Shown here: positions 5,126 through 61,199 of the stretch, piece after piece
Position numbering within the stretch: the first letter of the stretch is position 1
Layout of the letters: the number at the start of each line of letters is the position of its first letter
Assembly: GCA_964016885.1 (NCBI GenBank)
Contig: OZ024741.1
Span: forward strand, 113,460,001-113,524,000
Origin: Eledone cirrhosa
Lineage: Eukaryota
DNA length: 64,000 nucleotides
Direction of reading: 5' to 3'
Position numbers and translations under genes: made by a program
The notes under the pieces: model-generated
The model's input: the letters and a program-made list of their open reading frames with translations, nothing else
The model's database searches: none
Told to the model about the DNA's origin: nothing

Positions 5126-6174
5126 CTAGGGCGGATAAAATTCCTGAGATCCATGGACGAGTTCTCTCCAGCGGTCTCTGTCCCTCATTATCGCTGCCAT
5201 GTCCTACGTCTCCAACAGATCAGTGTCTGTCCTTAGGGCATCAACATACATTAACCTTGGTCTTCCTCTTCCAGTGTGTCCATGTAGGGGCTCCCACAGG
5301 AGCACTGAGTGCAATGTCAACTCTGGATGTCGGTGAGCATGTCCAGCTAACCTCAGTCTCCTCTGTTTCATTTTTGAGCTGACTTTTTGGAGGCTCCCAT
5401 ACAGCTCATAGTTTTTTATCCTCAGTGTATACTGATCAATGTTCAGAGCCATCCTCAGCATTCTCGTGTAGCACCCATCCACCAGCTGAGTGAGTTTCTT
5501 GGTCAGTGTCCAAGTCTCAGACCCGTACAGCAGCACAGACTCCACTACAGCAATGAAGAGGCGGATTTTCAGTCACTGCCTGATGAAGATCTTACAGGCT
5601 TATGGAATCCCCAAGAAGATAGTGGACCTGATATCACTGCTCTACACCAACACCAAAGCCCAAGTCATTACACCTGATGGGATGACAGAGTTCTTTGAGA
5701 TACTGGCTGGAGTGCTCCCGGGAGATACATTGGCTCCCTACCTTTTTATCATCGTAGTGGACTATTGTATGCACCTTGCACTGGAGAAACACCAGGACTC
5801 TGGCTTTACTGTAGCACTGGCTCAGAGCAGGAGAGTTAAGGCAAAAAAGGTATCAGATGCTGAATTTGCTGATGACATAGTTTTGGTGACAAATACAGTG
5901 AAGGAGGCAGAGGATTTGATGCAGGAGGTTGAGACTGTGTCTATGAGTGTGGGGCTGAGAATGAATGAGACTAAAACAAAATATCTGGTAGAGAATGTTG
6001 AGAAGCCAGAAGGGATCACTAATGTAGGTGGGAAGCTGCTAGAATTGGTTGAGGACTTCCTGTATTTGGGAGCAAAGATTGAGAATACAGAAGATGATGT
6101 GGTTGAGAGGAAGAGCAAAGCCTGGGCAGCATGCCACAGCTTGAGATCGGTGTGGAAGTCGGACCTTCGTAAAG
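5126..6174 (-). mobile_element. 5'-truncated RTE-like LINE with inverted 5' segment and 11-bp target-site duplication (TSD)
   Basis: RT core on + strand about 5574-6176 (GVLPGDTLAPYLF, FADD, DFLYLG, ending DLRKD) continues on the - strand from 5572 (LKIRLFIAVVESVLLYGSETW ... RDRDRWRELVH ... stop at 5126); ACCACTAAGTT at 5115-5125 and 6175-6185. Confidence 0.9.
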
Positions 6175-6469
6175 ACCACTAAGTTACAGTACATAAACAA
6201 ACAGCAAAAGTACATAGATACATGTATATACACACACACACATATATATGACTGGCTTCTACACAGTTTCCATTTACAAAATTTAACTCACAAGGTAGTG
6301 ATCAATCTGAAGCTATAATAAAATATACTTGCCCAAGATACCACACAGTGAGACTGAACCCAAAACTATGTGGTTGTGAAGCAAACACCTTAACCACACA
6401 GACTTACCTCTGGTTTACTTGAGTTTATGCGGGGTGGGTACATGTAATAGTAATGTGCATAAACAATGA

Positions 6470-8701: not shown

Positions 8702-9048
8702 TTGAGGTGCATATGAAGGTATATACGATGTGTTTATACATAATAAACATATGTAAGTCATGCTATGAACATTTTAAACCATGATCATATCACAGCTATT
8801 TCAGTAACTATGTGAGAACGCCAGACATTAGTGTTTCAGGATGTTCTATCTATGATCAATGATATTCACTTACTCAGTACTGTGACAATAATAAGCTATA
8901 GAAGCTGAAGGGAAAATCCTGAAATACTAGTGTATAGCATTCTTACACGGCTACTAAAATAGCTTTGACAGCTTAAAACAGTTATAGCAATATTTATATA
9001 TCTTTATTATACATAAACATATAGTATATACCTTCATAAACACCTCAA
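8702..9048. repeat. Diverged fold-back element (~140-bp inverted arms) with degenerate hammerhead motifs
   Basis: 8702-8842 is the imperfect reverse complement of 8916-9048; TCCTGAAATACTAGTGTATAGC in the right arm and TCCTGAAACACTAATGTC on - in the left arm. Confidence 0.65.
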
Positions 9049-10831: not shown

Positions 10832-12085
10832 TCATCATCATCATCATCGTTTTATGTTCATTCTTCCATGCTAGCATGGGTTAGATGGGTTGTCCTGTTA
10901 TGGGCAATGCTAGGTGAGGTGACCATGTCTTGTTCATACAGAACTGATTTTGGCTTGATTTCTACAGCTGGATGGCTTTCCTAACACCAGCCTCATTTAC
11001 AGTGAGTACTGGGTGCTTTTTACTGTGGCGCCTACACAACAACTTTACAATGGGAGGGGAGTGGAGGCATACTGTCTATATGCTTCAGCTTCCCATAGGA
11101 AGTTGGGGTTTCTGTATTACTGTGTAATGCCAAATGTCTCGATCCTGTGTCATCAACTTTGAGAGGTGTAATTGAGCAAGATCAGCTTTTGTCACCTCAT
11201 CCCAGGTCTTCTTGGGTCTCACCACTCCAAGGCTTCCATCAACTTTAAGTGCTCTGCACCTTTTTATGCAGCTATCAGCCTTCATAGGCATCACATCCCA
11301 ATACCAATGTAATCTCCTCTCCTGCACACAGCATTTGATTCCTCTTATGCTCAGTCTCTCTCTCAATTCATTTATGCTTTACTGTTCACGTATATTACTA
11401 TTACACATCCATCAGAGCATGCAAGCTTCATTTCTTTCTAATCTACACATCTTCTACACACAGCATCCAGGTCTCACAACCATGCAACATTGCTGTTCGT
11501 ATGCACGCATCATACAGTCTGCCTTTTATTTTGAGGGAAAAGCCTTTCACAAGTAGCAGTGGCAGTAACTCTCTGAACTTCTTCCATCCCGTTCTTACCC
11601 TGCTTACTGTACTTTCAAAACACCCACCTCCACTGCTAATTCAGTCACCTAGGTAGCAGAAACTGTCTACTGTTTCTACAGAGCTCTACCAGAATTGGGT
11701 AGTGCTTGTTTCCTGTGGTTGTTAGCTGCTTACTGTCCCGGTGCAACCACTACATGGAAAGCCTACATTCTTAACTAAACTTCCTGAGATTCCACTACAT
11801 CTCTTGTGTACCCATAGTCTGCATTTGGGGTAGAAGATAGAATTTCTACCTACACCTTTCCTACATACTGAGCAAGACCATTTCCCTGAGAGGATCTGGG
11901 TTCTGTTTTCTCTTCTACTTATGAGGACCTTAGTATTTGTCAGGTTGACTTTGAGGCACCTTCTTTCTAGGCCCTGCTTCCATGTTTGGAATTTCTTCTC
12001 TAGTTCCACCATAGATTCAGCTGTAAGTGTAAGATCATGTGCATACAGAAGTTCCCATGAGCATTCAGTCTTAAACTCCTCTGTA
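10832..12085 (-). mobile_element. RTE LINE 3' fragment with 3' UTR
   Basis: WELLYAHDL..AES, KWSCSVCRKGVGRNSI, VQERRLHWYW, RPKKTWDEV; (CAT)n tail at 10832-10848. Confidence 0.85.
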
Positions 12086-12587
12086 AATATATAAACATAT
12101 GTATATATGTGTTGTTGTGGCACTAGTAATGTCACCATACAGAGTGGACTGGGTTCTTTTGGGGTGGGGAGTGAGTCTATCTGCAAGCATGCATGAGTTG
12201 GAGAGGAGAGGTATATCAGGGGTATGGGAAATGTGGAGGGAGGAACATTGGAGTAGATAATTAGACATCTATTTCCCAAGCCCAACTCAGCCCCATGGGC
12301 TGCCATTCTCTGAGATTAGGCCAGACAAGAGACTACATCTAGTTGAAACATTTCATTTTTGTCAGATGTCTTTGTGAAACCTCTAACCAAGCATTTTATC
12401 ATGGTATAAGGGAGAACATGCCCGACTTTCCATGTTGGAATCGATTGGATGGAGGAATGGAGGCAATTATCTTTGTATGCTGACATGGATGAGGAGAAGA
12501 GGAAATGAATGTGAGCACTGTCATTCCATGCTGGAAGAAATGCAAAAAATGAGGAAGACAAATAGTCTCTCCCTGCTGCCATATATA

Positions 12588-18655: not shown

Positions 18656-18663
<8 letters not shown>

Positions 18664-21214
18664 ATACTTGGGGAGGGTCATATTTGTGTAATATTGCCAG
18701 AATTAATAACAGAATACACTCACTGTTTGGTTGGTTTTCGCTTCTCGCTTCTGTGTCTTTTATATCGGTAATCTAACTTACTCGGTCCTCAATGTTGCCA
18801 TTGACTGACCGACGGTCAAAAATAATACAGATACAATATAGACACAAACACATATATATAGTTTATCATAAATCTTTTGTTGCACATCTGCAACATCATC
18901 AGTGGTGTTATATTTTCCTCCTGTTGTATTGTATGTCTACGCCCCATAATCAAGATGTCCCCAGATGTATGTGACAGTACAGAGGACCTCCTCAGCGGAA
19001 TCAGTAAGTGCAACAAAACCAGGAGCCTATCCAACTGCATAATAGGCAGCATGGATGTGGTGTCACTGTACCCATCCATTAACATTGATTTTGCTGTGAA
19101 AAGATGTGTGGAGATGATCATTGAGAGTGAGGTGGAGTTCTGCGATGTCGACACAGACGAACTGGGCCTCCTACTTAGACTTACCTACGACACTGACTAC
19201 CTAGACAGCCATGACCTTAGATGCTTCTGCCCTAGTAGACCTATAAGAGGTAGACCCCCCCACCATAACCTCAATGGCAAAAAAGACTCCCATGGGAAGG
19301 TGGATTGGGTGGACCAAAGCTATACGGACCCCCCAAAACAATGATCAGGTAAGAAAAATGGTCGCACATGCAATAGGGGCTAGTATCAAAACTACCCTAA
19401 AGAGCCACATATTTAAGTTCAACGAGAAGATCTACACCCAAAATGAGGGAGCAGCCATCGGCGTCAGCATAGCTGGTGATGTTGCCAACCTTTTCATGGT
19501 ATGGTGGGAAAGGAGACTTAAAGATCTCCTTAATGAGAGCTCCATAGACCTCATCTTGTACTCTCATTATGTAGACGATATCAATATAGTTATAAGAACA
19601 CCCCCACTAGAGAGCACTAACAAGTTTGATTTAGAATGTAGCACGATGGAAAGCATCCAGCAGATAGCTAATTCCATACACCAGAGTATAACTGTAACTA
19701 TCGATATCCCTTCCAAACACCCTAACAATAGACTACCTGTATTAGACACAGAACTCTGGATTAACACTATAGACGAGAGAGCCCAAATTCTCCACTCACA
19801 CTATGCTAAACCCATGGCCTCCAAATACCTGATACTCAAAAACTCAGCAATTTCCAGTAGTGCTAAGTTTAATATTCTGATCGCAGATTTGGTACGAGTG
19901 AGGAAGAATGTGTCCCGCATGTGCGACCCAACAAAAATGGAAAAACACATCCAACACTTCATCAACCGCATGCAGTTTTCTGGCTACAACCAAAGAGACA
20001 GAGTCAGAGTATACGAAGGAGCCATGGAAAAGTATAAGACCCTCATAGAACTGGACATGAAAGGAATTTGCCCATTATACAGGAGCAAATCATGGAATAG
20101 CTTAGATAGGGCTAGACATAAGATAGGGAAAGCCACCTCATGGTACGACAACCAGAGATACCAGAGTGTCATGTTTGTGGACTCCACCCCTGGAGGGAAA
20201 TTAGCTAACCAGTGTAGAAAGGCCCTGAGAAAGACCCACTTAAAAATAAAGGTGGTAGAAAAGCCAGGAACCACCATAAAATCCCTGATCAGCAAAACCT
20301 ACCCTTTTAAGAAAACCCACTGCACCAATAGGAAATGTATCATATGTAAGGTGAACCCCGGATAAACTGTAAAACTAGAAACGTAGTCTATAGCATAAGA
20401 TGTACAGAGGGTACTTGCAGAAACATGACAACAACATACATAGGTGAGACAGCTCGTAGCATAGGTGAAAGGATAGACCAACACTGGGGGGAACTAAAAG
20501 GACGAAAAAACGGGTCAGTACTATACGAACATGCTAGACAACAACATGACGGTAACATAGACAACATAGAAATTAGAATAATATCTAAACACAGAAATGA
20601 CCCAGCAGATAGGCAAATCAGAGAGGCCAGTGAAATAGAAATTAGAAGACCAAGGCTAAACAGAAAGAATGAATGGAATAACAACAACACCCAAACAAAC
20701 AACACTGACCTAAGAGAAGTATAAATAAGTAAATAAAATAAAATAAATAAATAAATAAATACATACACAAGCACAATAACAACAAGCACATAAACAGACA
20801 CTAGTCACCCATCACACAGCAAACAAAACACTATACACACACGCAAACGCATGCGCAAAGAAGACAAAATAAAATAAACAAACAAGCAAATAAATAAATA
20901 AATATATAGACAGACTGAATAAAAATGGCGTAGACATACAATACAACAGGAGGAAAATATAACACCACTGACGATGTTGCAGATGTGCAACAAAAGATTT
21001 ATGATAAACTATATATATGTGTTTGTGTCTATATTGTATCTGTATTATTTTTGACCGTCGGTCAGTCAATGGCAACATTGAGGACCGAGTAAGTTAGATT
21101 ACCGATATAAAAGACACAGAAGCGAGAAGCGAAAACCAACCAAACAGTGAGTGTGTTCTGTTATTAATTCTGGCAATATTACACAAATATGACCCTCCCC
21201 AAGTATAACAATAT
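18656..21214 (+). mobile_element. 5'-truncated Penelope-like element with 288-bp inverted terminal copy of its 3' end
   Basis: 18656-18943 is the reverse complement of 20927-21214 (two mismatches seen); RT + GIY-YIG body between the arms. Confidence 0.92.
18944..20724 (+). pseudogene. Penelope-like RT plus C-terminal GIY-YIG endonuclease, two frameshifts (~19260, ~20360)
   Basis: GSMDVVSLYPSI, QNEGAAIG..AGDVANLFM, HYVDD, LPVLDTELW, RMQFSGY, Cys linker CTNRKCIIC..NC, NVVYSIRC, YIGETARSIGERIDQH, RQIREASEI..RPRLN. Confidence 0.92.
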
Positions 21215-23756: not shown

Positions 23757-25392
23757 TTAATTTTTCTATCAAATAAAGGCTTGATAGGTGATGTATTTAG
23801 CAAAATTTACACATTTCCTCATGAGATACTCAGCATCAAGTCTAACTTCAATTCAATGTTCGTGCCTACCCTTACCTCTAGTCATGAATCTTGGGTAGTG
23901 ACTGAAAGAATAGGATTACAAATACAAGCAGCCAAAATGGGATTCCTCCAAAGGGCTCTAAAATAATATTACTCAATAGCTCGGAGATCAGGGAGTTGCT
24001 CCAGGTAGAGCCACTACTTCTTCAAATTGAGAGACCACAGCTCCAATACTATGGACAGGTGGTTAGAATGCCCAAGGAAAAAAAAATCACAAGACAAATA
24101 TTTTACAGGAAAAACCAACCACCAACAAGAGTCCTAGAGGTAGACCATAAGCAAGAGGGTTGGATAATATCCAGCTTAATCTGTTGGAGAAAGTTGCTTT
24201 AGACAGGGCCCACTGGAAGTAGGACTCTGCCCCTATGATCCTCCCATGAATAAGTGAGCAAAGGAGAAGGTGGTAGTGGCGGCGGTGGTGGTGGTGGTGG
24301 TGTTGGTGAACATTTAAAGTGTTTGTGGAGATAATTCATATTTACAATGGTTGCATGAATAGCTGATGCAAGAAGTGCTGAGTTTCTTTAAAGTGTCCTA
24401 AGATTTCTATTCTAATTATAAAACAAAACACAACCAGTATTTAAGGCTGTTTTCCTTCTAAAGCTAGAGAGAGCCATATATCAAGTTTTTCCATTTTGCT
24501 CTAAAATGTACATGCCTCCATTACCAACCGCCTGGTTTTCATTTTCTCCTCCATTTTTAACTATGTCTTTCTTAGTCTTTCTCTTTTTCTACTTGCTTTG
24601 GCATTAATTTTCTTCACTCCTCACACCCAGTCACTTTAAACTTTCCTCAATACATGATTCGACCATCTCATTTTATCTCTGTTTATAAGTGAAGCTCTTA
24701 TTTTGTATACTACGTAAGGAAGCCAATCTATCTCTAGCAGGTTCACGTGACGGAATTGGATGATGCTAGTGAGTATAAATATCAGTATTTGTAATCCCTC
24801 TTATTTAAACAGAGGAATTAGCTAGATTTATTTTGATCCTTGTGTAGGGATTTCATCAGTGACTGAGTAAACTTTTCAATTATCTACAGACATACTACTT
24901 ATAAACCCATTACTATTTAGTGGCTTCAATAAACAAGCTAGATCAATTTGTGAACAGCTCTCGCACTACACTAATCTTCTGCAAATTTCTCTCTTTTTCT
25001 TTTTCACTTTATCTCTGTTTTCTTTTCCTTCCAGTTTTTTCTTTTCTCTTGTTGTTCTCATTCTTGTTTCCATTGTAATAATTATTAATGCTTTTGGTAC
25101 CCACTCACAACCACCTCTTGCTCTACGATTAAAACCATATGTTTTAAAGAGTTCTTTTTAATTTAATATCACCAAACATAATTTGATATCAGAATATTTT
25201 GTTGTGCTATTTCAATAATGAAATAATTAATAGTTTTAGGAAACCCTTTAAATTTGTTTAAATATAATGTATTTCATTTGAAATATGGTCACAAAAAAGT
25301 TAAGCTCGAACTCAGTGTCATCAAATTAGTTCATATAAGTATTTGTATAAAGATTAAATAGTGGTTAGAGCATTGGCCTTGCAATAGAAAAT

Positions 25393-25739
25393 GGAGGCAC
25401 ATGGCTTAGTGGTTAGAGCATTCGCCTTGCAATCGAAAGGTTGTGAGTTCAATTCTCAGACCGGGTGATGTGTTGTTTCCTTGAGCAAGACACTTTATTT
25501 CACATGGCTCCAGTTTACTCAGCTGTAGAAATGAGATGATAGGGACTGGGGTCCATATCATTCCACTGCAAAGTGGTCGTGGAGGTGCCACGGCAAAAGG
25601 GCACCCAGCACTCACTGTAAATGAGGTTGGTGTTAGGAAGGGCATCCAGCTGTAGAAATCAAGCCAAAATCAGTTCCTGTCCCACCCTTGCAAGCAGGGA
25701 AAAAGCTGACGTAAAATGAAATGATGATGAAATGATGAT
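25393..25739 (+). mobile_element. tRNA-derived CORE-type SINE with RTE-derived tail
   Basis: A box TGGCTTAGTGG, B box GAGTTCAATTC, MIR/CORE-like CCTTGAGCAAG..CAGTTTACTCAGCTGTAGAAATG, tail AGGAAGGGCATCCAGC..(GAT)n. Confidence 0.85.
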
Positions 25740-30799: not shown

Positions 30800-30867
30800 T
30801 ATATATATATATATGTAAGTATGTATGTATACATACATACATATATGTATACAGACGTACAGTAGCA

Positions 30868-30929
<62 letters not shown>

Positions 30930-31138
30930 CAGGTACACATACATATATGTACGTATCAGTTTAGCAGACGTTTATTATAACGCCCGCTTTGTCCGTGTTG
31001 AACAAAAAGGTGACGTGGTTGCCTTAACACCGTACGGCATAAATTCAGGCTGTCAGTTTGTTTACAAACGGACAAAGCGGGCGTTATAATAAACGTCCGC
31101 TAAACTGATACGTACATATATGTATGTGTACCTGTATG

Positions 31139-31263
<125 letters not shown>

Positions 31264-31417
31264 GCATGCTACTGTACGTCTGTATACATATATGTATGTA
31301 CGTATACATACATACTTACATTTAAGTAAGTTCCGTACTAAGAGTGAGAAATGAAATTTCGTTTTCATTTTATTAGAACTTATCGTTTTTGGTGCGCCTG
31401 GCCGACTGAACTCACTC

Positions 31418-31494
31418 GATATGCAAATTAGGCTGCTCAGCCGTTAATTTTCATAAGCAAAGTATATACTTTCGAACGTTCAACCATCTGGCAG
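31418..31494 (+). promoter_or_regulatory. Putative snRNA/H1-type promoter: octamer, PSE-position segment, TATA, +1 GGCAG
   Basis: ATGCAAAT at 31421, TATATA at 31463, TGGCAG at 31489; same spacing recurs at 34180/34137/34111 on - strand. Confidence 0.5.
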
Positions 31495-31502
31495 AAGGGT
31501 AT

Positions 31503-31545
31503 ACGGTGCTGATGATAGCTAAGAAGCTTGAAACTAGTACATCGT
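31503..31545 (+). ncRNA. Minimal type I hammerhead ribozyme
   Basis: ACGGTG-CTGATGA-TAGCT aaga AGCTT-GAAA-CTAG-TA-CATCGT: 6-bp stem I, intact core, palindromic ACTAGT stem III, GUA site. Confidence 0.85.
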
Positions 31546-31862
31546 TCCTGTGTCAGTGTTGAACAAAAAGGTGACGTGGTTGCCTTAACACCGTACGGCA
31601 TAAATTCAGGCTGTCAGTTTGTTTACAAACGGACAAAGCGGGCGTTATAATAAACGTCCGCTAAACTGATACGTACATATATGTATGTGTACCTGTATGT
31701 ATATATATATTAATATATATATATATATGCATGCTACTGTACGTCTGTATACATATATGTATGTACGTATACATACATACTTACATTTAAGTAAGTGCCA
31801 TACTAAGAGTGAGAAATGAAATTTCGTTTTCATTTTATTACAACCTATATATATATATATAT

Positions 31863-33814: not shown

Positions 33815-33866
<52 letters not shown>

Positions 33867-34047
33867 ATATATATATATATTTTTTTTTTTCACTCTACAT
33901 GGCTGAATACCATAAATGTAATCTGAGTTTTTCGAATATTAATAATAACATTCGATTCGTTTGCAATTATGCAAACAAGCATCATTTTTATACCCATGTC
34001 AGTAGAATGAACTCTTCATTCTTGCTCTTGTGTTGGCAGGTAAACAG

Positions 34048-34095
34048 AACTGCAGACACTAATGTTTCTGGGTATCCACCTTCATCAGTACAGCT
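34048..34095 (-). ncRNA. Type I hammerhead motif
   Basis: AGCTGTA-CTGATGA-AGGT ggat ACCCA-GAAA-CATTAGTG-TC-TGCAGTT: 7-bp stem I, GUC site, base of stem II imperfect. Confidence 0.75.
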
Positions 34096-34105
34096 CACTG
34101 TTCAC

Positions 34106-34183
34106 CTGCCAACTATCAGAGCTAGTGAAAATATATGCTATTCTCTAAAATATACAGTGCCTGATTGGCCTGATTTGCATATC
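34106..34183 (-). promoter_or_regulatory. Putative snRNA/H1-type promoter of element B
   Basis: GATATGCAAATCAGGC..TCAG, CATATAT 43 nt after the octamer start, TGGCAG 26 nt further. Confidence 0.5.
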
Positions 34184-34519
34184 AGCAGACTGGCCAGTCA
34201 GTTTCCTGGGCGACACCCAGAAACATTAGTGTCTGCAGTTCTGTTTATATGCCAACACAAGAGCAAGAATGAAGAGTTCATTCTACTGACATGGCTATAA
34301 AAATGAGGCTTGTTTGCATAATTGCAAACGAATTGAATGTTATTATTAATATTCAAAAAACTCAGATTACATTTATTGTATTCAGCCATGTAGAGCGAAA
34401 ATTTTCTTTTTTTTATTTGAATGTGGCAAAGACAGCTATTTCTCGTTCATATACAGGAAACTGACTGGCCAGTCTGCTGATGGCAGTAGGATAAAGGATG
34501 ACAAATAAAACAAAACAGG

Positions 34520-35065
34520 GCAACCTTTATACATTATTATATATAATAAATTATGCGAGGTTACATGAAGTCATTTTTAATTTTGAAGTGAAATTTGGGA
34601 TCTTCGAATAAGTAGTTGTAGACTTCTTTTTACTTCAGGATCTTTAATTATGGTTAGCAACGTTGCATTCCTCAATATCTTTCTTAGTAATTTGGTTAGC
34701 TTTTACATTTTATAATTGTGCATTTTTGTAAAAGAATTTTCCTTTTTTTGTACCTTAGTAAAATAGGTAAGTTTAGATATATGTAAGTGTAGATTTGGAT
34801 TAAAAGTTGAAATATATGGTATAACCCTTTTCATATTTTAAATTGTTTTTGTTTCTCAGTGTCCCTGGATGTTAATTTGTCACACTCTTTGAATACTATT
34901 GTTGATTAAATACTGAGGATATTTTCTCTTGAAGAGTCTGTGATCTCTTGTTGCCAGATTTAAGATTCTTGTGTAGATTTGATTAACTAAGGCGAATATT
35001 GGTACAGATGTGTGTTTGGGAGAGAAGATGTAAAATAAAAGGTATTGTCAGGAGTCCATAAGGTT
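34520..35065 (-). pseudogene. Old Penelope-like RT thumb to GIY-YIG start relic
   Basis: Fragmentary hand translation QYL..TSSLP, KYPQYLINNSIQRV, VIPYISTFNPNL, IIKCKS*PN, NLYII..KGC; many lesions. Confidence 0.55.
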
Positions 35066-36109: not shown

Positions 36110-36203
36110 TATAGAAATGCCTTCTACAGGACTAAAACTGTTTCCTGATGATTCATATGAATCATCAGGAAACAGTTTTAGTCCTGTAGATGTCATTTCT
36201 ATA
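36110..36203. repeat. Perfect 68-bp palindrome (36123-36190) with imperfect extension
   Basis: 34-bp arms, no spacer, centre ATTCAT|ATGAAT. Confidence 0.95.
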
Positions 36204-39200: not shown

Positions 39201-40040
39201 GCTAACATGACATTGTCGATATTACACTGTTTGTAATGAAGCTCTGTAATTTACAGGATGTTGCTAACATCACACCATTTACATGATATTGTACTTTAAT
39301 GACTGCTGCTAATGGTTATGTACATCTAAAAAATATGTTTTACTTGTTTCTGTCATTAGATGGTAGGGATTTAGTTGACCATATTGACTTTAACACTTAT
39401 TTTACTCGGGTACTTATTTCATCATTTGTTTTTGTTGAACTGCTAAGTTATGGGACATGAGCACACACAAATACACTAATGCACTAATATAAGAAAGAGA
39501 CACACACACACTCAGATATGTGTAAAGTGGTTGGTGGTAGGAAGGGTATCCAGCAGTATAATGTAAACAAAGGGTTGGGAGGACCCTTCAGTTATGTCAA
39601 CGGTATGACAACCTCTCCAGTGCTGATGCCATGATAAAATGCACTTAGTAGAACATGGAACCATATGTGAGATGTGAATCCCCAGTATAATTTTAACTCA
39701 GAAAGTAGAGTGACACAACGAAATGCTACAGTGCATTTCATTTGATGCACTAATAATTTTGTTTTCCTTTTGTAAGGTTTGTCTAGCAATTGGGTGCTAA
39801 GTGAAGTGTGTTGATTGACCTCAGATCAGTCCCTGATCTCAGAGGTTCAATATATCACGTAGGATTCTGACAGTGGTAGTGATGGTAGAAATTTGGGCAC
39901 TGCCTATGATGTAAGGGATCAGTCTGATCACTGTTAATTTCTTTCAGAGAAGGAGGGATATTGAGAGAAAGGATGTGAGAAAGCGATACCACCATAATGC
40001 AGCTATAATATTGCCTTTAAAATAATACAAAACAGATTTG

Positions 40041-42170
40041 TAACACTAACTGTATGCGTGTGTATGCATAACACTAACTGTATGTGTACCACTAACTGTA
40101 TGTGTGTGTATGCATAACACTAACTGTATGTGTGTGTATGCATAACACTAACTGTATGTGTGTGTATGCGTAACACTAACTGTATGTGTGTGAATGCATA
40201 ACACTAACTGTATGCATAACACTAACTGTATGTGTACCACTAACTGTATGTGTGTGTATGCATAACACTAACTGTATGTGTACCACTAACTGTATGTGTA
40301 TGTATGCATAACACTAACTGTATGTGTACCACTAACTGTATGTGTACCACTAACTGTATGTGTGTGTATGCATAACACTAACTGTATGTGTGTGTATGCA
40401 TAACACTAACTGTATGTGTGTGTATGCGTAACACTAACTGTATGTGTGTGAATGCATAACACTAACTGTATGCATAACACTAACTGTATGTGTACCACTA
40501 ACTGTATGTGTGTGTATGCATAACACTAACTGTATGTGTACCACTAACTGTATGTGTATGTATGCATAACACTAACTGCATGTATACCACTAACTGTATG
40601 TGTATGTATGCATAACACTAACTGTATGTGTACCAATAACTGTATGGGTATGTATGCATAACACTAACTGTATGTGTACCACTAACTGTATGTGTGTGTA
40701 TGAATAACACTAACTGTATGTATCTGTATGCATAACACTAACTGTATGTGTACCATTAACTGTATGTGTATGTATGAATAACACTAACTGTATGTGTACC
40801 ACTAACTGTATGTGTACCACTAACTGTATGTGTATGTATGCATAACACTAACTGCATGTATACCACTAACTGTATGTATCTGTATGCATAACACTAACTG
40901 TATGTGTTCCACTAACTGTATGTGTATGTATGCATAACACTAACTGCATGTGTACCACTAACTGTATGTGTATGTATGCATAACGCTAACTGTGTGTGTA
41001 CCACTAACTGTATGTGTGTGTATGCATAACACTAACTGTATGTGTACCACTAACTGTATGTGTGTGTATGCATAACACTAACTGTATGTGTACCACTAAC
41101 TGTATGTATCTGTATGCATAACGCTAACTGTATGTGTACCACTAACTGTATGTGTGTGTATGCATAACACTAACTGTATGTGTACCACTAACTGTATGTG
41201 TATGTATGCATAACACTAACTGTATGTGTACCACTAACTGTATGTGTGTGTATGCATAACACTAACTGTATGTGTACCACTAACTGTATGTGTATGTATG
41301 CATAACACTAACTGTGTGTGTACCACTAACTGTATGTGTATGTATGAATAACGCTAACTGTATGTGTACCACTAACTGTATGTGTGTGTATGCATAACAC
41401 TAACTGAATGTGTACCACTAACTGTATGTGTATGTATGCATAACACTAACTGTATGTGTATGTATGCATAACACTAACTGTATGTGTGTGTATGCATAAC
41501 ACTAACTGTATGTGTGTGTATGCATAACACTAACTGTATGTGTATGTATGCATAACACTAACTGTATGTGTACCACTAACTGTATGTGTATGTATGCATA
41601 ACACTAACTGTATGTGTATGTATGCATAACACTAACTGTATGTGTGTGTATGCATAACACTAACTGTATGTGTATGTATGCATAACACTAACTGTATGTG
41701 TGTGTATGCATAACACTAACTGTATGTGTATGTATGCATAACACTAACTGTATGTGTGTGTATGCATAACACTAACTGTATGTGTGTGTATGCATAACAC
41801 TAACTGTGTGTGTGTGTATGCATAACACTAACTGTATGTGTATGTATGCATAACACTAACTGTATGTGTACCACTAACTGTATGTATCTGTATGAATAAC
41901 ACTAATTTATGTGTACCACTAACTGTATGTGTATGTATGCATAACACTAACTGTATGTGTATGTATGCATAACACTAACTGTATGTGTACCACTAACTGT
42001 ATGTGTATGTATGAATAACACTAACTGTATGTGTACCACTAACTGTATGTATCTGTATGAATAACACTAATTTATGTGTGCGCATATTTTATCACTAACT
42101 GTATGTATATCCATGTATAACACTAACTTTGTGTGTGTATAACACCAACTGTGTGCATGTATACTGCATT
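40041..42170. repeat. Composite minisatellite of 28-bp and 18-bp monomers sharing CACTAACTGTATG
   Basis: TAACACTAACTGTATGTGTGTGTATGCA (28 bp) and CACTAACTGTATGTGTAC (18 bp), often alternating as a 46-bp unit. Confidence 0.95.
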
Positions 42171-42277
42171 GAAACTGTTAAACTGAAGCTTTCTGTATGC
42201 AGCTCAATTTGACATGTACATTTTAAATATAAAACAATTGAAATTATGAAGTAGGAGAAAGTTTGGTTTAAGGTGCC

Positions 42278-56158: not shown

Positions 56159-57613
<1,455 letters not shown>

Positions 57614-57643: not shown

Positions 57644-57913
57644 TAATTATGTAATAAACAACACAATATAATTATTCCACTATCCAAGGTTTCATGAAGT
57701 TAGACGATTCTAACAGGAACGTCTGTTTCATTCATCAGATGAAATATCTATGTTATGGATATAAGATATCCATAACATAGATATCCTATATCCATAAGAT
57801 ATCCTATATCCATAATATCTGAAGAACAAAATAGACGTTTCTGTTAGAATCGTCTAATTTCTTGAAACCTTGGGTAATGGAATAATTATATTGTGTTGTT
57901 TATTACATAATTA
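57644..57913. mobile_element. Fold-back element with a long-stem-II hammerhead in each arm
   Basis: 57644-57740 inverted relative to 57817-57913; nested 19-bp hairpin in the spacer. Confidence 0.8.
57673..57746 (-). ncRNA. Type I hammerhead motif with extended stem II
   Basis: TATTTCAT-CTGATGA-ATGAA ac AGACG..CGTCT aac TTCAT-GAAA-CCTTGG-ATA-GTGGAATA; the + copy reads CTGAAGA..GAAACCTTGGGTA-ATGGAATA. Confidence 0.7.
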
Positions 57914-59867: not shown

Positions 59868-60217
59868 TCATCATCATCATCATCATCATTTCATTTTACG
59901 TCCGCTTTTTCCCTGCTTGCAAGGGTGGGACGGGAACTGATTCTGGCTTGATTTCTACAGCTGGATGCCCTTCCTAACACCAACCTCATTTACAGTGAGT
60001 GCTGGGTGCTTTTTTGCCATGGCACCTCCACGACCACTTTACAGTGGAATGATAGGGACCCCAGTCCCTATCATCTCATTTCTACAGCTGAGTAAACTGG
60101 AGCAATGTGAAATAAAGTGTCTTGCTCAAAGAAACAACACATCACCTGGTCTGAGATTTGAACTCACAACCTTTCGATTGCAAGGCCAATGCTCTAACCA
60201 CTAAGCCATGTGCCTCC
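59868..60217 (-). mobile_element. tRNA-derived CORE-type SINE with probable ACTTCAT TSD
   Basis: Reverse copy of 57274-57613; ACTTCAT at both junctions. Confidence 0.88.
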
Positions 60218-61199
60218 ACTTCATGTTTTATATTTATTTTTATTTCTATTTTCCCGTCCTTTCCTATTTTTCCCGATAACTTCCCCCTCACTCCGTCTCG
60301 GAGTTCCTGCCCCCACTCTCCCGGTGAAGGATTTATGTCCGAAACGTTGTAAACCCTCCCCTCTCTCTCCAAGCATGAAATTAGTAACACCATGTACCAT
60401 TTACTCCTGCGCTTGTTAGTTTATTTCAAACTATATATATACACACACACATACACATATATACACATATATTCATACATATTTATACATCCACAAATAC
60501 ATATACAAGAACATTTATAGCAGTGAGTGAGGGATATGTTTATTTTCTAAGTACAAAATAACAACTAAATATCAAGATTCAATTATTTGAATCAATTTAT
60601 TAATAGAGAGAAAATATATTTCAGTGTTGTTAACAACTAAAGCCAATGACTGTTGACAAATCTGCTATTATCTGGTTATCTAAGATCAATATATTGGAAA
60701 GACAGTGTCTAAATATGAGTATAGATTGTGTAAGATTGTGTTAATTAATTATTGGAAAAAATAATTCATCACCATCATCACCATGCAATAATATTGTTTT
60801 CTTTTATTATTTTAAAGGTGAAAACAGTAGATAACCGATTGTTTTGAAAATAACTTTATGAGAAAAAAATAACAATGCTCCTATCACCACATCATTTTTC
60901 TCACTCAAAAGAAATTGTTCAAAATATCCACAGATTGGTCACTATTTTGGAGAGGACATGACTAACATTCAGTACAATTAACTCTTTTGTTACCAAACTG
61001 CCTGAAACTGTCTCCCATACTTTGCAACACTGATATTTATTTTGCTGTGCAGAACTCAGTAGCATTCATATCCATTGCATTTTGGAGATTACCTTCTGAC
61101 AAATTAAGTAGTACCATGTCTACAAATTCCAGTCAAAAGATCTTATACTCACTGGTTTTGATACCACTTCCTACTTAGCTATACATGTTTATCCATCTT

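Follow-up and report, generated by a model that had tools for sequence, protein, structure and literature searches.

What kind of RNA could have been copied into a repeat whose end is joined to its own start? The stretch of Eledone cirrhosa DNA analysed here (64 kb, hereafter the window; AT- and microsatellite-rich) holds such a repeat, element B, which an earlier note had described as circularly permuted, with a circle or multimer as the proposed template. In our view element B very probably belongs to the non-LTR retrozymes, or non-autonomous Penelope-like elements (PLEs), as a high-copy, non-coding member. Class and mechanism taken as one, that is, PLE mobilisation from uncleaved read-through RNA, are given a probability of about 0.55. 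The permuted layout itself stands, but it is not distinctive: it is the ordinary partial-tandem layout of PLEs and retrozymes (PMC8557442, PMC4209133, PMC7229834).

Element B spans 33887-34481 and consists of two partial copies of a unit, inverted head-to-head (Table 1). The unit measures 374 bp (322 + 52), where roughly 370 bp had been proposed, and runs from an octamer-bearing promoter-like region through a type I hammerhead and three hairpins to an A/T-rich end and a linker. The proposed joining of unit end to unit start was confirmed to the nucleotide. The 28-mer at 34454-34481 (+) is an exact match to 34208-34181 (-), expected by chance at about 1e-11, and the latter copy abuts the octamer (34180-34173, -), lying immediately upstream of it. 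The T-rich run was likewise found where it had been placed, at 34402-34418. The + arm is real, but its first nucleotide lies near 34208, within the 5' strand of stem II, and not at 34214 in the 3' half of the ribozyme. The arms differ at 9 places over 189 aligned nt, begin with near-identical words of 9-10 nt, and the + arm extends 80 nt past the - arm. Read as a single RNA, 34208-34481 (+) followed by 34180-33887 (-), element B gives 568 contiguous nt, or about 1.5 units, that include the 28-nt overlap and two cleavage sites, both of them intact. GC content is 0.31-0.42, and the one 161-codon stop-to-stop frame overlapping the element had no Pfam match. No target-site duplication was seen at element B. 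Its right flank (34482-34486) starts with GGCAG, the word of the predicted transcript start, possibly by chance.

Table 1. Features of elements A and B and of the PLE remnant in the window
Feature	Position	Strand	Remarks
PLE remnant: RT, GIY-YIG in another frame, inverted 284-bp terminal repeats	18660-21210	+	
Element A, diverged sister family	30812-31853 (outer ends approximate)	.	inverted arm and direct partial tandem
Element A, 5'-truncated copy	30995-31383		
Element A, promoter and hammerhead copy	31416-31559		direct partial tandem with 30995-31383
Left flank of B: (TA)n microsatellite and A-tract at 3' end of - arm	33820-33890	.	
Non-inverted arm: 28-mer, octamer, promoter-like region, intact hammerhead, 3' hairpin domain, tail-like end	33887-34208	-	
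Mirror of tail-like segment 34377-34401	33887-33911	-	
Three hairpins downstream of ribozyme	33932-34022	-	also in element A, where compensatory changes occur
Type I hammerhead with extended stem I	34032-34113	-	
TATA-like tract (putative function)	34129-34137	-	about 27 nt upstream of GGCAG; similar place in element A
Octamer ATGCAAAT	34173-34180	-	GGCAG follows at 70 nt (at 69 nt in element A)
28-mer, copy 1	34181-34208	-	directly 5' of octamer
Inversion junction, 5-bp palindromic hairpin	34206-34220	.	sequence
Inverted arm, truncated at its 5' end: from stem II through cleavage site 34233/34234, 3' domain, T-run and linker to 28-mer	34208-34481	+	
Tail-like segment between two family 3'-end classes (34376; about 34400-34410)	34377-34401	+	depth steps, loose ends
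T-rich run (34402-34418) and linker, unit end to next promoter	34402-34453	+	
28-mer, copy 2	34454-34481	+	overlap of both arms

A greater-than-unit RNA template for element B is well supported. Although located upstream of the predicted transcript, the promoter-like region is copied, and it can have been retrotransposed only from such a template. This travelling of the promoter-like region with the copies, the recurrence of the junction in other DNA copies and the contiguity of about 1.5 units bear out the earlier proposal of a multimer or circle. An uncleaved read-through dimer would give identical DNA, and a circle is therefore unsupported over a linear dimer.

Other copies of family B were retrieved from 4 of 10 sequencing runs (X1, X4, X5 and X8) aligned to 34070-34600, a span that holds the unit once. 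X1 may be the source sample of the window, X4 bears another organism label, X5 is of unrecorded kind and X8 is a RAD library. Among the matches listed, the 28-mer followed by the octamer occurred in 988 X8 reads and one X4 contig, 34481 was joined to the promoter in 1264 X8 reads, and 3308 X8 reads and 36 X1 contigs had a linker homologue on the upstream side of 34208. The joint 34081 to 34208 of the intact hammerhead was present in 5705 X8 reads (among the best 15 of 219 joints). Of the aligned pieces (best 24 of 9570), X4 record 16 covers 34371-34481 with 9 differences and then enters the octamer, and X1 record 7 covers 34327-34464 with 19 differences; head-to-tail repeats are present in both, as in elements A and B. 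Since these runs are of DNA or of unrecorded kind, the junction is genomic. With the X4 contig and thousands of X8 reads carrying it, the end-to-start junction that had been expected in other copies is not private to the element B locus.

Summed X1 depth was 1.3e5-8e5 on the unit against about 20 on unique flank, a rough ratio and not a copy number, which suggests thousands to tens of thousands of family B copies. Depth climbs from the promoter to the hairpin domain and then drops (733k, 407k, 89k and 6k across 34358-34429), falling stepwise past 34376 and past about 34400-34410. Among the loose ends listed (best 21 of 716), at least 49 X1 and at least 3 X5 contigs enter (AT)n behind 34376, giving this class at least 52 contigs, and three single contigs end at 34400, 34404 and 34410. 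Measured from the cleavage site, the two apparent classes of family 3' end lie 143 and about 168 nt downstream, roughly 25-34 nt apart. X1 depth on the linker was 6-10k against about 150k on the promoter (about 4-6%), an underestimate because the window linker has diverged and under-maps. Most family B copies appear to be dispersed and 5'-truncated, not arranged in long arrays, and no array with two complete hammerheads was detected in the window or in the aligned contigs, which are short.

Both arms of element B carry the same letter at all seven family-polymorphic sites checked, one of them a letter of about 4% frequency, and so derive from one subfamily. A probability of 0.003 for this sharing was discarded, as it assumes independent sites and overstates the case. 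Where the arms differ and a frequency is listed (34214, 34248, 34334 and 34355), the + arm carries the private letter, which fits one template lineage followed by ageing. Two further candidates were rejected. An apparent compensatory change from C-G to U-A between the arms in hairpin 3 (34334, 34355) is CpG decay at both sites, private to the + arm. The places where X8 reads begin or end (34249, 34320, 34323, 34400 and 34420) are not element ends but sites of the RAD library, four of the five lying at AATT and one at an inferred CATG-containing site, which we take to be the restriction sites used.

The deepest listed X5 contig (record 19, 34212-34307) has only the 3' half of the ribozyme and the first hairpin in common with the unit and diverges beyond them; at 34302, 4119 X8 reads likewise depart from the unit (again among the best 21 of 716 loose ends). 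Both may possibly represent a sister family or an autonomous partner. Within the 64-kb window, no autonomous partner with a terminal repeat homologous to element B was found.

The hammerhead of element B was recognised by its core motifs. On the - strand these are CUGAUGA (34088-34082), GAAA (34068-34065) and GUC, with predicted cleavage after 34055; the core thus follows CUGANGA, GAAA and NUH, stems I and III are present and stem I is open. The Rfam hammerhead family gave no match at the gathering score, nor any among the 21 matches at E ≤ 10, and the Rfam matches near element B are microsatellite artefacts. A search of viral and metagenome contigs for the hammerhead motif gave 0 matches. Stem I consists of 7 bp, a 2-nt bulge and 16 bp. 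The earlier note had given this extension 13 bp, ending at the predicted +1. The helix exists and includes one G-U pair, but its length is 16 bp (34113-34098 with 34047-34032), 3 bp beyond the assumed +1. Helices of at least 13 bp arose in 2 of 200,000 shuffles and of 16 bp in none, and the folding score of the 101-nt region was z = -6.9. The weaker equivalents proposed for element A, TGGCA/TGTCA and AGGG/TCCT, are both present as pairings.

The helix is probably not perfect throughout the family. The + arm has A at 34249, opposite G34106, where element A has an internal loop. The start of 5131 RAD reads at 34249 fits a CATG-containing cut site, which would need A there, and A>C at this position is absent among the best 40 of 97 variant rows. 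Many family B copies therefore probably carry a G.A mismatch in distal stem I. At 34246, T>C turns the G-U pair into G-C in 37% of X1 depth. Stem II of the family reads A-GGGT-GAT-ACCC-A, with A.A at its base in place of the 10.1-11.1 pair in both the window copy and the read consensus, so that the mismatch is not private to the window copy. Element A has U.U at the same place, a parallel to the U.U of axolotl HHR_Amex2 (PMC7229834). With tertiary contacts left out, the lowest-energy fold (-44.2 kcal/mol) is rod-shaped, with the core paired to stem III, and the active fold reaches -34.5. After cleavage the strands are predicted to remain paired (-45.3 kcal/mol), so a nicked rod would be plausible once cleavage has occurred.

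Structural conservation was assessed against element A. A promoter and ribozyme model built from element B alone retrieved element A (41 bits, E about 7e-7, rough), along with nine further matches at E 0.004-0.6, mostly palindromes or microsatellites. The hairpin-domain model, also from element B alone, retrieved both A copies (E 0.004-0.006, rough) and one further match (E 0.39). All 16 compared pairs of stem I are kept between A and B, five of them changed on both sides: 6/6 proximal pairs (two double changes), 4/4 inner distal (two) and 6/6 outer (one). The compensatory changes anticipated for the extended stem are thus found between A and B. Hairpin 1 keeps 8/8 pairs, four changed on both sides, and hairpin 3 keeps 9/10, three changed on both sides. 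Hairpin 2, alignable only with a 3-nt insertion, was left out of the count. This covariation comes from two lineages, in alignments that were hand-anchored or model-fitted. The hairpins at 33932-34022 (-) are a candidate reverse transcriptase-recognition domain. The promoter spacing, extended stem I and three covarying hairpins of both families are pointers to cis-elements that a PLE protein may recognise. The inversion junction of element A (30995) coincides with the last pair at the outer end of its extended stem I, where reverse transcriptase may have stalled at the foot of the helix; the observation was made post hoc on one case.

The less usual feature of element B is an octamer promoter common to two diverged families. 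Two of the four octamers in the window are those of elements A and B, and the distance to GGCAG differs by a single nucleotide (69 and 70 nt). A TATA-like tract at about -27 hints at what we take to be a U6/H1-like Pol III arrangement. The shared octamer recalls newt satellite 2, whose promoter is said to include an octamer and a PSE. In both A and B, no T4 lies inside the predicted transcript and a T-run follows it; T4 is absent from 32-75% of shuffles, and the pattern lends a Pol III reading no support beyond chance. The CCAAT box of the - arm is not family consensus (34166, 34167). The shared promoter motif had one match each in viral and metagenome contigs (L001, L002), both without a hammerhead core or further similarity and hence attributed to chance. 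Reads over 34161-34194 show that other B copies contain additional tandem repeats of a module about 33-34 nt long, which includes an octamer-like word, and that the number of promoter modules varies among copies.

The class assignment draws on two described groups. Metazoan non-LTR retrozymes share with element B a non-coding unit of 150-450 bp with low GC (below 50%), a type I hammerhead, head-to-tail junctions, very high copy number and coexistence with PLEs (PMC7229834), and the 374 bp of B match the 350-390 bp of the mussel repeats (PMC7229834). They differ in forming long arrays, whereas B copies appear dispersed and 5'-truncated and B is known here from DNA alone. The accessible sections on metazoan non-LTR retrozymes do not describe an octamer promoter or a stem I of about 23 bp. 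These retrozymes are now argued to be non-autonomous PLE derivatives (bioRxiv 10.64898/2026.07.22.740005).

PLE insertions are described as a partial tandem with an inverted 5'-truncated copy and an optional tail of 30-40 bp, and palindromic junctions are usual at the inverted copies (PMC8557442, PMC3846280). EN+ PLEs and pLTR derivatives (PMC8557442, PMC3846280, PMC4209133, PMC11167929) accordingly resemble B in the partial tandem, the inverted truncated copy, head-to-head in both A and B, and the palindromic junction. They may also be alike in having two classes of 3' end separated by roughly the length of a tail; further likenesses are insertion into AT-rich or (TA)n DNA and a hammerhead just 5' of a structured region extending to the 3' terminus. 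The (AT)n behind 34376 and the (TA)n flanks of A and B point only weakly to such targets, the genome being microsatellite-rich. Unlike EN+ PLEs, B has no ORF, its helix I is long against the 4-5 bp of PLE minimal hammerheads, and its longer arm extends 80 nt. That extension is longer than a PLE tail of 30-40 bp, and an overlap of 28 nt lies above the median of 12 for L1 (PMC12016303); both count against the PLE reading.

The mobilising class is present in this genome, as shown by the PLE remnant at 18660-21210, the sole PLE in the window. Its RT matched RVT_1 at E 7e-4 and its GIY-YIG domain the GIY-YIG region of P0018 (37% identity, E 6e-20). The best named match of the longest RT frame in the window was an Octopus vulgaris protein (65% identity; 1 named among 17 matches), which points to an octopod as the probable host. 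The remnant has no similarity to element B. Its terminal repeats are 99.3% identical and contain a degenerate hammerhead-like motif, with (TA)n on the left.

In vitro, a PLE protein nicks AT-rich DNA, begins synthesis at two internal sites, which set the tail, depends on RNA immediately 3' of the hammerhead and has unprocessed RNA as its dominant substrate (PMC11167929). On the reading preferred here, the promoter of one unit would drive read-through into the next unit of a partial tandem. The reverse transcriptase/GIY-YIG protein of a PLE would nick AT-rich DNA, and reverse transcription would start internally near the end of the hairpin domain and copy backwards, taking along the promoter of the downstream unit. 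Most copies would come out 5'-truncated. For element B the template may have been an RNA at least 1.5 units long that retained both hammerhead sites intact, the simplest candidate being an uncleaved linear read-through RNA. Its upstream 274 nt would then have been laid down inverted with a 28-nt overlap, either by twin priming, in which an inverted upstream segment overlaps the non-inverted cDNA (PMC12016303), or by a PLE-type template switch.

The alternative that survives best is a covalently closed 374-nt RNA, formed by two cleavages and ligation and copied about 1.5 times by the PLE reverse transcriptase; we consider it possible but unlikely. RNA circles of 170-400 nt are the main form of the coral, mussel (350-390 nt) and axolotl retrozymes (PMC7229834), greater-than-unit copying of circles has already been proposed (PMC4209133), and rare subfamily letters shared by arms with both cleavage sites intact are as a circle predicts. 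A homogeneous tandem dimer, however, predicts the same DNA. Cleavage would also be disfavoured in B by the A.A at the base of stem II and by a lowest-energy fold that sequesters the core, and elsewhere it was not needed in the PLE in vitro system (PMC11167929), while 8 of 9 Xenopus retrozyme dimers stayed uncleaved in vitro (bioRxiv 10.64898/2026.07.22.740005). The template of animal retrozymes and PLEs is debated on these grounds, circles (PMC4209133, PMC7229834) standing against the dispensability of cleavage in vitro (PMC11167929). Thousands of dispersed greater-than-unit insertions allow a genomic test, by comparing unit with unit within each young insertion.

More doubtful still is an extended version, in which an old octopod retrozyme clade uses a compact, modular octamer/TATA promoter of its own to make an abundant small RNA of about 225 nt whose hammerhead, held by a 23-bp stem, would persist after cleavage as a stable nicked rod, and occasional read-through yields 374-nt circles copied more than once around by a Penelope reverse transcriptase. 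On this view rolling-circle reverse transcription would have left element B as a genomic fossil, and the design of promoter plus hammerhead would have arisen in both cephalopods and newts. Newt satellite 2 resembles B, by description and not by sequence comparison, in its tandem hammerhead unit, similar size and internal snRNA-type promoter (Coats, Zhang and Epstein 1994, as cited in PMC2220036 and PMC6765202). It differs in being transcribed by Pol II, against the Pol III hinted at by the TATA-like tract of B, and the host of B is an invertebrate. Our literature search found no description of cephalopod retrozymes in the sources covered, repeat databases and most subscription papers lying outside its scope; a giant squid paper lists 235 Rfam hammerhead matches, unanalysed (PMC6962438).

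An origin at the DNA level, with a partial tandem folded back or inverted by template switching during replication, would make the layout uninformative about the RNA template. The 5-bp palindrome at the junction (34206-34220), the near-identical words at the arm starts, the missing target-site duplication and the adjoining (TA)n tract all agree with it. We judge it improbable, as the head-to-head layout recurs in four unrelated hammerhead/PLE-type loci of the window (element A, 57656-57901 and 18660-21210 among them) and equals the described PLE insertion product (PMC8557442, PMC3846280), and as the - arm stops at the family 3' end with an A-tract.

It is very improbable that B is SINE-like, in the style of Schistosoma Sm-alpha or newt satellite 2, and was inserted by LINE twin priming on a read-through transcript: the A-tract at the 3' end of the - arm, an inverted 5' part whose 3' end overlaps the non-inverted 5' end as in L1 (PMC12016303), a LINE-like RT fragment in the window (5490-6182, RVT_1 E 2e-11) and described tandem SINEs with promoter and hammerhead (PMC6765202) agree with this, but most listed family ends pass into (AT)n at one fixed position inside the unit, and a second class follows about 25-34 nt on, as in PLE internal initiation; B has no target-site duplication, and among short SINEs mobilised by L1 a 5' inversion is found very rarely (0.02% of Alu; PMC12016303). 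Compared with L1 5'-inverted insertions, B has an overlap of 28 nt against a median of 12, no target-site duplication and a template that crosses the unit boundary.

We therefore retain PLE mobilisation from uncleaved read-through RNA as the preferred reading of element B. Several other repeats lie in the window. The locus at 57656-57901 is a third head-to-head pair, with a hammerhead-like core, a long stem II and short tandem repeats between its arms; the only match to the B model near it is weak (57745-57843, E 0.45). Palindromic inserts occur at 36110-36203 (96% self-complementary), centred on a CTGATGA word without a clear hammerhead, and at 8702-9048 (70%). A 325-bp repeat is present in three copies that are 95-97% identical (25389-25715, 57274-57602 and 59890-60221); its tRNA-like head (Rfam tRNA match at 25402-25459) marks it as a young SINE. 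A complex minisatellite occupies 40036-42200, with many offsets of 80-85%, and a frame with a weak PHD-finger match (E 0.001) lies in a repeat-rich stretch at 11722-12315.
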